Part shown: piece by piece, positions 6,094 to 17,764 of the stretch
How positions within the stretch are numbered: position 1 is the stretch's first letter
How the letters are laid out: each line of letters starts with the position of its first letter
Origin: Cirrosporium novae-zelandiae
Taxonomy: Eukaryota
DNA length: 52,310 nucleotides
Assembly: GCA_026023565.1 (NCBI GenBank)
Contig: JAPETS010000076.1
Location: 1-52,310, forward strand
Reading direction: 5' to 3'
The notes under the pieces: model-generated
Told to the model about the DNA's origin: nothing
The model's input: the letters and a program-made list of their open reading frames with translations, nothing else
The model's database searches: none
Program-made: the position numbers and the translations under genes

Positions 6094-7559
6094 ATGTTTT
6101 CACGATCCATCAAAGCCACCACCACCACTACTACTACTTCCTCTCGATTTCCACTATCACTGTCACCATCACCATCACTACTATTACGACAACAACGAGT
6201 TCGAGCAATGTCGACTCTAAACACAAAATTCAAACTCAATACCGGTGCCGAGATCCCAGCGATCGGATTCGGCACGTGGCAAGATAGAGGCATGTGTTTG
6301 TTTGACAGTTGTAAAAAAAAAAAAAAAAAACTTGTAAAGTTTCAAGGGTGTGAGTGGCTAACAGATAAGCGTGAAAAAAAAAATAGATGCCCAGGAAAAT
6401 GCTGTGAGAGAAGCTTTGAAAGCTGGATATCGCCATATTGATACTGCTCGTGTGTAAGTTCATAACCAAAGTGATCCCTTCTTCTTCAATTGACGATGAT
6501 TATTCATTCTACTGTACTCACTTCTCGTCCCCCCCCCTCCACCCCCTAGGTACGGAACCGAAGCAGCAATTGGTAAAGCCATCAAAGAGAGCGGTATCTC
6601 TCGGGAACAAATTTTCATCACGACCAAGCTCTGGAATAATGCTCACCATCCTGATGATGTCGAAGCGGCTCTTGATGCCTCCCTGAAAGATCTGGGAACC
6701 GACTATGTAGACCTGTATCTTATGCATTGGCCTTCGGCGTTTGCGCGTGGGGAGTCTTTATTCCCAAAGGATAGCAACGGGAAGAACAAAATCGGGGATA
6801 CCGATTATGTTGATGTATGTCCATCCTTCCCCTCCCTTCCTCCTCCACCCCCAACCCACCACCCATAACAAACCACCCCCAAAATAACATCTCCCCCCCC
6901 CCTCACAAAAAACCCACAGACCTACAAAGCCATGGAAGCGCTCCAAAAAACCTCCAAAACACTCGCCATCGGCATCTCCAACTTTTCCAAATCCGAGATC
7001 ACCCGCCTGCTGCAAGAAACCTCTACCGTGCCCGCCGTCCACCAGCTGGAGCGCCACCCTTGGCTGCAGCAAGCCGAGTTCGTGGAATGGAACCAGAGTC
7101 ACGGGATCCACGTGTCGCAGTACTCGCCGTTTGGGAATCAGAATGAGATTTATGATAAAGGGAAGAATATGGGGAAGCTGATTGAGGACCCGGCGCTCGT
7201 GGAGATTGGGAGGAAGTATGGGAAGTCGGGGGCGCAGGTTGCGTTGGGTATGTTTTTTGTCCCTCGATCCCTTCCATGATGCCCCCCCACCCCCATCCTC
7301 TCACACCACCACCACCGTTAACCACCACTAACCACCCCCACCCCCCCAAAAACCAACAGCCTGGGCCATCTCCCACACTTGCAGCGCCCTCCCCAAATCC
7401 AAAACCCCCACCCGCATCCACGCGAACCTCCAAGGCGACTTCCAGCTCTCGACCGAAGACGTCCAGAAAATCGATTCCCTGGACAAGAAATTGCGGTTTA
7501 ATGATCCTTCCGAGAGCTTTGGCTGGCGGTTTTATGCTGATTTGGATGGGAAGAGGTGA
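6094..7559 (+). CDS. Aldo-keto reductase (GCY1/aldehyde reductase-like), 5 exons, two in-frame ATGs (6094, 6208)
   Basis: Spliced product contains IPAIGFGTWQ, GYRHIDTARVYGTE, FITTKLW, YVDLYLMHWP, IGISNF, QYSPFG and ALPKS. Catalytic D/Y/K/H are present. First intron 6290-6386 is GC-AG. Stop TGA at 7557-7559. Confidence 0.93.
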
Positions 7560-7996
7560 GTTGAATTGGGTGAGTTGGGTTAGTTGGGTGGGTGGGGTGA
7601 GTGAGTAAGAAGAGTTGGGGGTGGATGGATGGATGGATAGGGTTGAGCGAGCTTGTTCTTGGTATATGTCGTGTGTAGTATGTGGTATATGGGTGATTGC
7701 TAACGAAGCTTTTTTTCTTTTTTCTTTTCTTTTCATATCTTATAGGTGTGTAGAAGGTCGTTCACTACGTACAGTAACATCTTTATTGGAAATAACTGAT
7801 GGAGCTATACAATAAGACATACAATCGTTAATTTTACCTTCCATATATTATCATTATCGTAGCCTTCCAATAGCAACTCTTTCTACCCACCTGAACTCAA
7901 CCGAATCCCACAACTATCCTTCATGTAGCCCTAACCTCCACATCCCAAGAGCGACAATCATCGTTCTTTTTGCTCCCTTTTGGAGTAGTAGCTTTA

Positions 7997-10189
7997 TTAT
8001 TTCTCGGTTTTCTGAAAAAAATCACCACCCTTTGCATACCATAGCGGTGTTATACCAGAGATATTCACCGTATTCACGTCTGCCCCCCCCCCACATTCGA
8101 TCAGCAACTTCAATATTTCCAGACTCTTAAAAGTGATTGCGTAGTATAATAGTGTCTCGAGGGTCTCGATCCTTTGTATTGATTTTCGCCCCACTTTCGA
8201 GTAGTAGTTTCGTTATATCTGGCCGCCTAAGTATAACTGCATAGTATAGCGGTGTCCGACCCAAGTTATCCTTTGCATCCACATCTACTCCCCATTCGAT
8301 TAGCAGCTTCACTAATTCTCGATGCCCATACTGAGCTGCATAATGTAGTGGTGTACTCTTCTCTATTTCTTTTGCATTGACGTCGGCACCTTTTTCCAAT
8401 AGCAGCTTCACTATCTCGAGATTGCCCCACTCAACTGCTTCATGTAGTACTGTCAAGTCCTTTTCAGCTCTTGCTTTCATATCTGTTCCATTTTCGAAGT
8501 AGCAGCTTCAATTCTTCTAGATCATCGTTTCGAGCTGAGTCGAATAGTTTCCTGTTCGTAATCGCTACCGAGGGTTGCATTTCAGATTTTGACTGCGATG
8601 GAACAGGTAACTTGATTCCAGGGGGGGTTGGACTGCGGGATCTGAATAACGCTTTGTCACCTTGGTTGCGATTACGATGATTAGCATATGCGCTTCCATT
8701 CTATATGTCATATACCCTCTGAATGAGCTTACTAGAGATCTGTTCCATGGAAGCTAAAATAGTCATTAACGATTAGCTTCGCGCAGATAAACAGTTTTCT
8801 TTATATCATCTATTTACAGAAACGATTTTTGACAATGTCTGGGGCATCTCGCTCAAAGTCCTTTAAATTCTGTAGAGTACGTTTATATCCTGTATCATTC
8901 CTGTGGCTAAACTTGGCAATCATTGAATGATCATTATGGATCGGGAGTTTGATCTCATTTTGGTTTGGAAGCTAGAAAGCACTTCAGATTTGTTAAAAAT
9001 ACAGCTTATTGATTTCACGAAGTTAATCAGTGGCCGAAAAATTGTTTCTTTCTATGAAACACGGTGGACCAAGAAATTACAACAGGTAAGGTAGTATATA
9101 TTGATATTGTAGAAAACTATTAATATATCATAGAAAGAAGATGGATCTTGGGCTCGCACAGGATCGGCTATTATATCCCTCGACCCAAACAGTGCTATCT
9201 TGCAACTGCGTTAATAAAATATTTCGTGGATGGCCTTTTTCTAACATGCTCCTCATATCCTCGACGAAAAGGCCTTTATGTGACACGCCGAAGAAAATAA
9301 TTCTATATGTTGCTTTATACAAGGAACATAATGTTGGATGGTTATTCTTGTTTATCTGAGCAGCTTTCACCAGAGACTGTCCTGAAAATTAGAATACATT
9401 CAATAGTTTGAGGGGAAGTATAGCATACACGTGCCAGTATAATCCCACCAAAACTATGGGCAATAAAAAAAAGAGGTCTTTTTGTTGTCTATAAAATTAA
9501 TGTTGTTAGTTTATATTTAAAATTTAAAGAGTTAGAAGTTAACGACTTACTTCTTTAGTTGCCCGGACACTCTTGATATCTTCTAAGAATTGTCGAGTAT
9601 AATCTTCGACCATACTAATATCATAAGATAGCAAGTTGGAATCATAACCACATATCATGGTGCGACAATTAAGCAGATCTTTTGACAGAAAATCACGAAG
9701 CCACATGCGGTTCGTTTGTCCTTTCCATTTCCACGATCCATACGCATGGCCGCCTAGTCCGGTGATTGCGATAATGCTATAACACGTCGCGTTAGTTTAA
9801 TACAGACTTTGCTTAATGCTAACTTTCGAAAGAACCTACTCTGCTGAAATCGCTTTATTTGCTTGTTTGGCCTGATACAGTTGTGTAAACCCATAAAAAT
9901 GTGAACCAAAAGATACATCGTCCTCAGTATCTTTTATTTCAACCTGGCAGCCTTCTGGGGGGATGAAACTAGGCACACCGTTTTCAAAGTTAATTAACGC
10001 AACAGACATCTATCTATCGTCGTCTTCATCGCATGAAGGCACGATGGTGATTTTGTATTTGATAGTTTTCTTTTCCTCGTCTGAAAGATGCCCGTTCAAA
10101 AGCAATCGTATTATCTGGTCGGTATCTGCTGCATCACTTGTGGGTATTCCAGTAGCACGGTATACACGTAATTTGTTGGAACTGGGCAT
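7997..10189 (-). pseudogene. SesB-like alpha/beta-hydrolase fused to ankyrin repeats, disrupted
   Basis: Spliced exons give DIIAITGLGGHAYGSW...MWLRDFL...GYDS, RPLFFIAHSFGGIILA (nucleophile elbow), IIFFGVSHKG and NDHSMIAKF, then about 4-5 ankyrin repeats (TPLHYAAQYGHRELVKLLIEWGVDVDAKD). Lesions: in-frame TAG at 10010-10012, internal inversion 8972-9205, frameshifts near 8497 and 8170. Confidence 0.88.
8972..9205 (+). other. Inverted internal segment of the hydrolase-ankyrin gene (two exon parts plus one intron now on the plus strand)
   Basis: Plus strand reads LESTSDLLKIQLIDFTKLISGRKIVSFYETRWTKKLQQ, intron GTAAGG...TAG, then KEDGSWARTGSAIISLDPNSAILQ. This is the missing middle of the minus-strand hydrolase domain. 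Confidence 0.9.
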
Positions 10190-11114
10190 TGTGACCAGGT
10201 ATATCTTCGACGGCACATCGTTATGCGTTTCAAAATGGTTCCCTTCAAAAGAAGAATAGATGCTAAAGTGGATGAGCAAAGAAGCAACGAGACTGTCAGA
10301 AGCCACGAAGATTGAGCCTTTTAGCCTTGCGATATATTCAGCCATAGAGAGGGTGACAACGATCCTTTACTAATCTTAGCCACATACTTAGGGACGAAGC
10401 ATCAGCGTGCTATTTGACTGGGAGCACTTCTTCAAAGTACTTGATGAGGGCCAACTCATCAGATCCGTGGTCATTCATGGACGCCATTACGAAGTGAAGA
10501 TGCATAAGGAACTTAGAAATATTTCTTTCTCTAGTGATAATTAAAACCCTTAGATCAATCTATAGCAATTTGACTTTCAACAAAAGCATAATAAAACAAC
10601 TGAGATTTAGGGTCTTTGAGAAATTAAAGATGTCCAATGGCATCTAACTTGCACATCACTCCGCAAAGTCAATTTGTACTTCATTATCGGGGCTCGGACT
10701 TTATAGCCCTTGAGGATCGGTGACTTATTTCCCTACTCCCCCCTCCAAACAGCCAAGTTATCCATTAGCGAGAATTCAGTGACAAACAGGGTCGAAAAAA
10801 TTATTTGCCGGAATCCAATTGGAGATTTCCTTTCTAGTACAAAATTGTTGAGTCTTTCGGGATAGGTAGACGGTGAATTATTCAGGAGTGTAGGAGTAGT
10901 AGTTTTTTAAAAGATTAGATGTTTTCTTGGATGGCATGAATATGTGGTTCGGGGAGGGAGGGGTTGGGGGGTTGAGGAGGATGAAAGGGAAGGAGGATGA
11001 AGGAGACGGGTTGTAGAGTGTTCGTAGAATGTGTCCCATAGGATTTATAGCATAACATAATATCACTCCCAATCCCTTCAGCCCATATTGACCCAAAACA
11101 AACCAAATCAACCC

Positions 11115-15628: not shown

Positions 15629-16311
15629 ACTTTTTAATGACCAAACACTAATTCATTGGCTGGAATCAACCAACTGGCTATTCATCATCCACATATTCAT
15701 ATATTCTTCCCTCGTTATCGTCGCTTAGACCATCATGCCGCAAGTTTGGTAGTTGAATACCTACGTAGTTAGGTCTTCCACACTTGCCTGAATGAAACTA
15801 TCGATGACTTTTAATTGTAGTTGGTATTTTTTCATCCTATCGAAACACTCGGTGGTCGACCGACTTAATGCGAAAATGCTGAGAGGACTAATCCGAAGGA
15901 TGAAGATTTCCATTCCTAGAAAACCATGACAGCCATGGGAACCATTAGAACTACATTGGTATTGACTACGGATGGAGCCTCCCATGTTTCATCCCATTTT
16001 GATTATTCGTGTTACCGTTTGTTTGCTATAGCTGTAATTTTGGTCTTCTGCTGTTGAATATAAGAATACCTGCTTGTCCTCCCAGGATGCTTTCTTTCTC
16101 CAAGGACTACCTTCCAACAACATCTCACTCATCTCAATTCTTTTCACAGGTCTTGACGACCCCTTACATTCTTTCTCCGCTCAACACTTCATTGATTGAA
16201 GTTTATACGCTCCTTGTCGCTGGCCGCTGTTAGAACTTTACAATCTCTACACAACTTGACATTTCCACTCACTTAGAAATAACCATCTTGAAAAATCTCA
16301 TCTCTCTCAAA

Positions 16312-17764
16312 ATGTCTATGCTTAAGACTGCTGCTCTCCTCGGAGCTTTGGCTTCCATGGTTCCCCGTGTTGCTGCTCATGGACGTGTCCAGGGTATTGT
16401 TGTGGATGGTACTTGGTAGGGCTAACCTGAATCCAACTTTTTCTCCTCTCCTGACACGACATAGGTATGAGGGTTACAACCCTTCCTTCCAGTACTACTC
16501 TACCGATGAGACACCAATAGTTATTGGATGGTCCGACCCTGAGGATCTTGACAATGGTTACGTTGCTCCTGATGCCTATGCCACCTCAGACATTATTTGC
16601 CACAAAGATGCAACCAACGCCCAAACATATGCCGAGGTTGCTGCCGGGGGTGTTGTTGAGCTACAATGGACTGACTGGCCCGAGTCTCATCACGGTCCGG
16701 TCATCACCTATCTCGCAAACTGTGATGGCGATTGTATCACCGTGGACAAGACTGGCTTGGAATTTTTCAAGATTGATGCTGTTGGCCTTGTTGATAGTTC
16801 AACTGTCCCAGGCACCTTTGGGTCGGATCAGTTGATCAACAACAACAACTCGTGGGTCGTCACCATCCCAGACTCCATCAAGGCTGGCCAATATGTTCTT
16901 CGACACGAAATTATCGCTCTCCACGGTGCCGAATCCGAGGACGGTGCTCAGAACTACCCTCAGTGCATTAACTTGAAGATCACTGGATCTGGCACCGACA
17001 CCCCAACCGGCACCCTTGGCACTGCTCTCTACCAGGAAAGCGATGCTGGTGTTCTTGTCAACATCTACCAGAGCTTGGCTACCTATGATATCCCAGGACC
17101 TACTCTCTACTCCGGCCATGTTTCCATGACCCAGACCACCGTTGCAATCACCTCTTATGCTGCTGTTGAAAGTGGTTCTGCTGTCGCTGCAACCTCTGCT
17201 GCTGCTGCCACAACCTCTGCGGCTGTCGCTGCAAGTTCAGCCGTTGCCAGTTCCGCTGCCGTTGTAGCCTCCTCTGCTCCCGCTGCCACCTCGATTGCTG
17301 CCACCTCGGTTGCTGCGAGCTCGGCTGTTCCCGCTAGCTCCTCTGCCGCCTCTGTTCAAGCCGCAACCTTTATCGCGGCATCCAGCGCTGCCCCAGCCTC
17401 TAGTGCTGCTCCGGCTTCCAGTGCTGCACCAGCTTCCAGTAAGAAATCCTGCTCCCTTTCCGGCGTTACCGTCACCGTCAAATCACAAGTCACCGCCACA
17501 GTGACAGCTGACAACGTCCCCCAAATCACTGGGTCATTCAACCAAGTAAAACCAGTTGCTCACGTTATTTCCACAGGTGCTGCATCAGTTGCATCGGTAG
17601 CCAGCTCTGCTGCTTCCTCCACCTCCACCTCCACTCTTGATGAAACCCTCCCCGAGGGTATGACTATGAGACAATTTTTGGAAGACCTCGAGACCGCCAT
17701 CCAGGACATTCTGTCCGGCTCATCTAGCCTGAGCCGCCGCCACGCCCGTGACATGCGAGCATAG
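16312..17764 (+). CDS. AA9 (GH61) lytic polysaccharide monooxygenase with long Ser/Ala/Thr-rich C-terminal extension
   Basis: Signal peptide [22 protein letters not shown] is followed by mature His1 (HGRV). Intron 16416-16464. Motifs [33 protein letters not shown] and [11 protein letters not shown]. The protein ends RRHARDMRA. Confidence 0.96.

Follow-up and report, generated by a model that had tools for sequence, protein, structure and literature searches.

The minus strand of the 52,310-nt contig JAPETS010000076.1 from Cirrosporium novae-zelandiae (assembly GCA_026023565.1; the whole of this stretch is hereafter called the window) carries a lipase-ankyrin gene, an ascomycete nuclear gene that is read from 10189 down to ~7900, and within it a segment of 234 nt, at 8972-9205, lies in the opposite orientation. 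We conclude with considerable confidence that this is a real in-place micro-inversion inside a decaying pseudogene, and not a switch. Judged against its relatives, the inversion is exact to the base, has carried a conserved intron along, and is peculiar to the locus in the window. Micro-inversion is an already known class of mutation, and the case described here is a well-polarised further example of it. When the literature on micro-inversions in fungi was searched, none of the matches listed dealt with a fungal nuclear gene by its title, and most concerned plant organelle genomes.

The minus-strand reading frame runs as ...HPRNILLTQ to 9206 and then continues as LPNQNEIKLPIHNDHSMIAKF from 8971, with 62 codons absent in between. 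The missing 62 codons were found between these two breakpoints on the plus strand. The inverted segment contains the remainder of exon 4 (8972-9085), an intron (9086-9133) and the start of exon 5 (9134-9205); this intron is 48 nt long, is bounded by GT and AG on the plus strand, and is in phase 0. The reverse complement of 8972-9205 joins both sides in frame, and the only stops that it brings in fall within the 48-nt intron. Each breakpoint is ambiguous by 2 nt, and a flip of 8970-9207 (238 nt, counting 2+2) yields the identical sequence. When the minus-strand frame is read as it stands, without the flip, a stop is met 25 codons past the junction; therefore, the inversion by itself is enough to cut the hydrolase short and to remove its C-terminal part with the conserved xDHS histidine. 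The inversion had been proposed in a sequence-only reading of the window, and all of its coordinates hold, including the end of HPRNILLTQ at 9206 and the resumption at 8971. Its claim that flipping 8972-9205 restores the frame with no base gained or lost agrees both with the sequence and with the junctions of the homologues described below, and the intron that it placed inside the segment is the 48-nt GT..AG intron, which is conserved in relatives.

Four full-length homologues (P0005, P0025, P0100 and P0092) were used as tblastn queries against the 52-kb window. Each of the four gave three query-colinear matches, in the strand order minus, plus, minus: from 10189 to ~9200 on the minus strand, from 8927, 8960 or 8984 to 9208 on the plus strand (E between 6.7e-13 and 2.8e-10), and from 8971 to 8813 again on the minus strand. 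Such a pattern exceeds what is expected by chance. The gene was then flipped and spliced by script, and the resulting conceptual protein has 382 residues and a single stop. It aligned with the best homologue, P0005, over residues 1-382 with 56% identity (E 2.8e-146), and it matched all 119 other homologues. The best match extends across both junctions in 90 of these 119, and in 87 of the 90 the alignment is free of gaps within 6 residues of either junction. The 29 homologues that do not span the junctions are short or truncated database entries, or have a match that ends before residue 255.

The layout was also compared at the DNA level with 60 related loci from metagenome contigs. Of the four exon pieces used for the comparison, at least one was matched in 48 loci, and all four in 29. 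None of the 60 loci is an orthologue, since the best of them is only 71% identical in exon 2. In all 29 four-piece loci, a single strand carries the pieces, and they follow each other as they do in the flipped gene. The second junction has 0 extra nt in 29/29 of them, and the first has 0 extra nt in 27/29, the remaining two (L049 and L050) showing -1 nt. The pieces are colinear in L049 and L050 too, and this -1-nt offset at the equivalent of the first junction may be a frameshift of the relative or an edge effect of the alignment. An intron of 54-66 nt was found in 29/29 loci at the place where the window has its plus-strand intron. Furthermore, none of the 161 matches in the 48 loci was on the opposite strand, and no inverted piece was observed. 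Because the relatives are colinear and agree with the flipped gene in their junctions and in the intron, we take the inversion to be real with respect to the ancestral layout of the family, and exact to the base; the ancestral orientation is fixed by a conserved protein domain together with a conserved intron.

Besides the inversion, at least three further lesions disable the gene. An in-frame TAG at codon 60 (10010-10012, minus strand) is a nonsense lesion apart from the inversion; it appears as a stop within the alignments of all four homologues, and it is the sole stop in the flipped conceptual protein. In addition, two to three frame changes lie in the ankyrin part. Near 8496, ...DDLEELKLLL is followed one base later by ENGTDMKAR... 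in another frame; near 8160, ...AKINTKDRD passes into ETLLYYAITFKSLEILKLL, with Pfam Ank matches on both sides; and near 8020, ...TPLWYAKGGDFF passes into SENREIIKLLLQKGA. The periodicity of the ankyrin repeats leaves no space for introns at these positions. Homopolymer runs occur at 8085-8095 (a C run, the GGG of ...IECGGGADVN on the minus strand), within or adjoining the ankyrin frame changes, and the T/A run at 8013-8025 (...GGDFF/FFSEN) is the site of the third of them. The second assembly described below was compared over 8500-9700, an interval outside which both runs lie. Since flipping removes neither the TAG nor the frame changes of the ankyrin part, we are dealing with a pseudogene in either orientation of the segment. 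The lean of the sequence-only reading towards decay is thus borne out by the TAG at 10010-10012 and the frame changes near 8496, 8160 and 8020, beside the inversion.

The degree of conservation was measured on 179 alignment columns in which 86 homologues agree to at least 90%. The window retains 131 of them, a share that is similar before the inversion (91/128) and inside it (23/32) and higher after it (17/19), and four columns invariant in the homologues are among those lost. Repeat-induced point mutation (RIP) was considered as a cause of the decay and is not indicated: over 7900-10200 the indices do not have the pattern of RIP, with a TpA/ApT of 0.84 (window median 0.75) and a (CpA+TpG)/(ApC+GpT) of 1.20 (median 1.25).

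The breakpoints carry only small repeats. The AG at 8970-8971 pairs with the CT at 9206-9207, and this 2-nt microhomology sets the breakpoint ambiguity. Just inside the ends, an imperfect inverted repeat was found, whose left arm (8971-8983) contains AGCACT and whose right arm (9191-9203) contains AGTGCT; the arms are complementary at 11 of 13 positions, and the exact 6-mers (8978-8983 and 9191-9196) form the core of this 13-nt repeat. As a control for chance, a 234-nt segment was placed at random 5000 times in the window. A breakpoint microhomology of at least 2 nt in total was obtained in 15.5% of the random placements (P=0.155), and an exact inverted repeat of at least 6 nt within -12..+25 of the ends in 20.4%, so that the microhomology and the exact 6-mer are at chance level and have no statistical weight. 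The AG/CT pair and the AGCACT/AGTGCT pair that the sequence-only reading had pointed out are hence present as it described them, and it is as a clue to the mechanism that they fail. The score of the 11/13 repeat was reached by 0.0015-0.02 of the random placements when a mismatch was scored -1, and by 0.01-0.08 when it was scored -2, the value within each range depending on the search window. The imperfect repeat is a better clue than either the 2-bp microhomology or the 6-mer.

Alternative positions of the breakpoints were tried and rejected. With breakpoints inside the exact 6-mer (a flip of 8978-9196), the product reads ...NSAF, then a stop, then LPN, at a place where the homologues have SA[IL]LQLP. 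With breakpoints in register with the 13-nt repeat (a flip of 8971-9203), one residue is gained at the first junction and the conserved Q is lost at the second. Because breakpoints inside the repeat are rejected and the junction residues disagree, the 11/13 repeat is not itself the site of crossover or priming, but it may have drawn the two ends together. Perfect or near-perfect inverted repeats flanking the segment as an inverted spacer were not found at the breakpoints, the 11/13 repeat being internal and out of register.

The record that contains the window is a metagenome-assembled genome (MAG), and its sequence was found in a single public run, X1, which contains all the sampled words of 8300-9900, may be the source sample of the window, and was checked as contigs and not as raw reads. 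These circumstances would fit an artefact of assembly or library preparation, the true genome being uninverted, and the sequence-only reading had listed this option. We regard it as very improbable. In a second k-mer assembly of X1 (Logan, k=31), one 4355-nt contig spans 8500-9700 with 0 differences, at a word depth of 329.5, which resembles that of a neighbouring contig from the same organism (349.7); no joints or loose ends occur at the breakpoints. The 31-mers that span the junctions are present in the X1 reads and form the preferred path of the graph. For a k-mer (de Bruijn) assembler to invert a segment, inverted repeats of length k or more must enclose it, and no exact inverted repeat near the ends of the segment exceeds 6 nt, far below 31. 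Random chimeric reads, for their part, would not become the consensus at ~330-fold depth. Runs X2 and X3, of the same study as X1, gave no contig that could be placed on the region. We conclude that the sequenced DNA really contains the inverted form, as the assembled form of X1, and that mis-assembly is unlikely because an independent k-mer assembly crosses both breakpoints without differences; with no long inverted repeats at the ends and an identical X1 contig, the artefact option is weakened. The idea that the segment works as an invertible on/off switch, or is kept as a balanced orientation polymorphism, controlling an effector gene of the NOD-like receptor (NLR) type, had been raised speculatively in the same reading, and it is attractive in that an exact flip would restore the local frame, short inverted repeats lie at the ends, and relatives of the gene serve as the N-terminal domains of fungal NLRs, presented in the passages of PMC4986451 on these domains as a fast-evolving family of non-self recognition. 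It fares worse still than the artefact, and we give it almost no credence: in the putative ON orientation the gene is still broken by the TAG at codon 60 and the ankyrin frame changes, and no inverted piece was found in the 48 related loci with matches (0/161 matches inverted). The second orientation was not seen among the X1 contigs, from which minor variants can drop out. The repeats at the boundaries are of 2 nt, or are 11/13 and out of register, and the flanks do not resemble recombination sites; inverted recombination sites at both boundaries were not found, the longest exact repeat near the ends having 6 nt. No recombinase or transposase domain was detected in the 12 open reading frames (ORFs) scanned, out of 25 of at least 110 aa, within 1-22000.

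Of the ways in which a real micro-inversion could have arisen, we favour, at little better than even odds, a template switch over the rejoining of two breaks. One replication-based inter-strand template switch and return would have produced the inversion, and the quasi-palindrome just inside the ends may have helped by drawing them together; this mechanism is preferred because both junctions are exact and the quasi-palindrome (11/13) is present at the two ends. The support for choosing a mechanism is weak. Two double-strand breaks could instead have freed the 234-nt fragment, and end joining could have reinserted it reversed, with no template switching. A microhomology of 0-2 nt fits end joining, the 2 nt observed here being no more than chance, and the inverted repeat is out of register and has its arms flipped together with the segment, so that it was not the sequence that recombined or primed. 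Four broken ends usually lose or gain bases upon rejoining, yet the junctions are base-exact, with 0 extra nt in 27/29 and 29/29 relatives, and an uncommon 11/13 repeat at both ends would have to be a coincidence. The two-break route is therefore a possible account to which we assign the lesser probability, and it differs from the template switch in mechanism only. A more specific proposal is in our opinion doubtful: an NLR-related gene of non-self recognition would have lost its function recently through the inversion, as an allele that may still be polymorphic, and the inversion would stem from a single 234-nt inter-strand template switch seeded at the quasi-palindrome.

Several observations weigh against the conclusion of a template-switch micro-inversion in a decaying pseudogene, and they concern its different parts. 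Regarding the ancestral state, no orthologue was present in the collections searched, the identity of the best relative amounting to 56% across the domain and to 71% in exon 2, and the orientation is deduced from paralogous and homologous genes, and not from a sister genome. Regarding the DNA, X1 may be the source of the window, so that the Logan contig would represent a second assembler and not second data; the evidence consists of contigs, which drop rare variants, and a minority uninverted form could go unseen. Regarding the decay, the frame changes near 8496 and 8020 were read by eye from the repeat periodicity, with no Pfam match on both sides, and the 48 lost conserved columns could partly mean a divergent subfamily and not decay. 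Regarding the mechanism, the statistic and the scoring of the 11/13 repeat were defined post hoc; both arms of the repeat fall within the segment, with an axis shifted by 3 nt from that of the inversion (8971+9203 versus 8972+9205), in contrast to the spacer inversions between flanking repeats in the cases set out in PMC8755829; the 2-nt microhomology has a P of 0.155; and the minimum-energy DNA fold of 8961-9216 leaves the two ends unpaired.

The exon-intron layout was read from the sequence and then compared with the homologue alignments; all positions that follow are on the minus strand. The tblastn matches of the four homologues begin at 10198-10183, where residue 1 or 2 of the homologue is aligned. 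Exon 1 (10189-9840) is divided by the TAG into its first 59 codons (10013-10189; MPSSNKLRVYRATGIP...), which the stop separates from the rest, and a remainder (9840-10009) at which the deposited model P0001 begins with MSVALINF. Intron 1 (9777-9839; 63 nt, GTAGGT...TATAG) agrees with the P0001 junction ...KAISAD|IIAITG. Exon 2 (9551-9776; IIAITGLGGHAYGSW...MWLRDFLSKDL...) is the most conserved part of the hydrolase domain, and intron 2 (9489-9550; 62 nt, GTAAGT...TATAG) is seen as a gap in the tblastn alignments. Exon 3 (9429-9488, or only down to 9431 with the alternative splice pair) includes AHSFGG, the nucleophile elbow, at 9444-9461, with the Ser codon at 9453-9455; the homologues have VAHSFGG or IAHSFGG at this place (e.g., P0005 and P0025). 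Intron 3 extends down to 9377/9382, and the part of exon 4 upstream of the inversion (9206-9376) ends with ...GHPRNILLTQ. On the other side of the inversion, the remainder of exon 5 (8819-8971; LPNQNEIKLPIHNDHSMIAKF...DIVKNRF) completes the hydrolase domain, with tblastn E values of 1e-13 to 5e-8. The ankyrin-repeat region (7914-8530) follows in three reading frames, which change near 8496, 8160 and 8020. Between the hydrolase, which ends at 8819, and the first ankyrin repeat (~8530) there is only a short linker of ~290 nt.

The ancestral product was a sesB-like/SERAC1-like alpha/beta-hydrolase domain with ankyrin repeats directly after it. AHSFGG agrees with the (G/A)xSxG nucleophile elbow of alpha/beta-hydrolases, and the C-terminal xDHS motif is retained alongside it. 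With exon 2 as the sole query, 199 database proteins were returned at E<=0.001, the best non-self ones being 69-72% identical, and many of these relatives, under the name SERAC1 or DUF676, possess NB-ARC or NACHT plus TPR, ANK or WD40. In Pfam, the single exons of the window gave only sub-threshold hydrolase matches (Hydrolase_4, Abhydrolase), and P0001 gave no match at all. The gathering score of DUF676 (PF05057) is not reached even by the intact homologue P0025 (18.1 bits versus a cut-off of 20.3), and a precomputed PF05057 is present on some homologues. Pfam Ank matched the ORF at 8127-8507 (E 2.8e-31) and the ORF at 7997-8212 (E 3e-6), which are in different frames; the gene thus possesses a C-terminal repeat domain of the kind found in fungal NLRs (ANK, TPR or WD40). 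No nucleotide-binding domain (NACHT or NB-ARC) was matched in any gene piece or in P0001. Because it lacks such a domain, the window gene is to be classed as a hydrolase-ankyrin relative and not as an NLR by definition.

The only database protein from the window gene is P0001 ('MAG: hypothetical protein M1834_009043 [Cirrosporium novae-zelandiae]', 255 aa). It begins after the TAG and joins ...SVRATKE straight to LPNQNE, that is, exon 2 to an acceptor (TTTCTAG| at 8972, minus strand) that exists only through the inversion. The model omits the exon with the catalytic serine and ends in the first ankyrin frameshift. It is most likely that this 255-aa protein is an annotation artefact of a pseudogene. 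On the plus strand, the inversion has created a chimeric predicted frame, which opens with an ATG at 8927, continues in phase through the flipped exon pieces and closes with a TAA at 9212-9214; it has ~80 codons once the 48-nt intron is removed. Trans-splicing of transcripts from both strands was considered and rejected: an AG precedes 8972 on the plus strand, but no GT follows 9206 on the minus strand or 9205 on the plus strand.

Some features of the neighbourhood were also recorded. The linker at 8552-8657 is matched over 106 nt, with 8 differences, by a second X1 contig (9852 nt, depth 349.7) that is unlike the window beyond it. Because this contig matches the linker and then diverges to its left and right, the same genome contains a related linker copy at another place. 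When the linker ORF was used for a protein search, only P0001 was returned. An aldo/keto reductase gene lies at 6500-7559 on the plus strand (Pfam E of 1e-14 and 6e-11 in two exon ORFs), and long open frames rich in proline, present on both strands at 7023-7739, overlap its 3' part. A gene for an AA9 lytic polysaccharide monooxygenase lies at 16292-17764, also on the plus strand (E 8e-65).

The biology of the case is modest: it is an ordinary mutational scar, and unsurprising to a specialist. Its value lies in an unusually clean, base-exact inversion of middle size that could be polarised without a sister genome, and it adds one case to what is known of the sizes of exact inversions and of the repeat geometry at their ends, a matter that bears on template switching versus break repair. 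It is also a warning for annotation, as gene models such as P0001 can mask lesions, and scans for opposite-strand, query-colinear matches would flag similar cases. Should the doubtful allele proposal turn out to be true, template-switch mutagenesis, printed for 17-33 nt in primates, would act on segments about ten times longer in fungi, and template switching would have a part in the birth-and-death turnover of genes that resemble immune receptors.

Site-specific invertible switches are known from bacterial phase variation, in which invertases act, and from the FLP/FRT system of the yeast 2-micron plasmid. The window resembles them in that the orientation of a segment decides the local reading frame, and differs in that its boundaries lack inverted repeats of the size of recombination sites, a recombinase was not found nearby in the 12 ORFs scanned, only one orientation was seen, and the gene is dead both ways. 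The sesB-like predicted lipase domain is a class of N-terminal domains of fungal NLRs in the passages of Dyrka et al. (2014; PMC4986451) on such domains; as compared with the receptors described there, the window gene is alike in its hydrolase similarity, the AHSFGG elbow and the xDHS motif, whereas it has no nucleotide-binding domain and is a pseudogene. The closest parallel is with template-switch micro-inversions. The four-point model, as presented in the relevant part of Loytynoja and Goldman (2017; PMC5453318), has a case in which only the fragment is inverted, and these authors argue for inter-strand switches. In the portion of Potapova, Kondrashov and Mirkin (2022; PMC8755829) that treats the human-chimpanzee comparison, 59 definite exact micro-inversions of 17-33 nt are reported, all of them flanked by perfect or near-perfect inverted repeats, and microhomology-mediated break-induced replication (MMBIR) is proposed as their origin. 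Compared with the cases given in that portion, the window segment, at 234 nt, has about tenfold the length, and outside its breakpoints there is only a 2-nt microhomology. With the micro-inversions covered in these parts of both papers, the one in the window has in common an exact in-place reverse complement and short inverted repeats at its ends.

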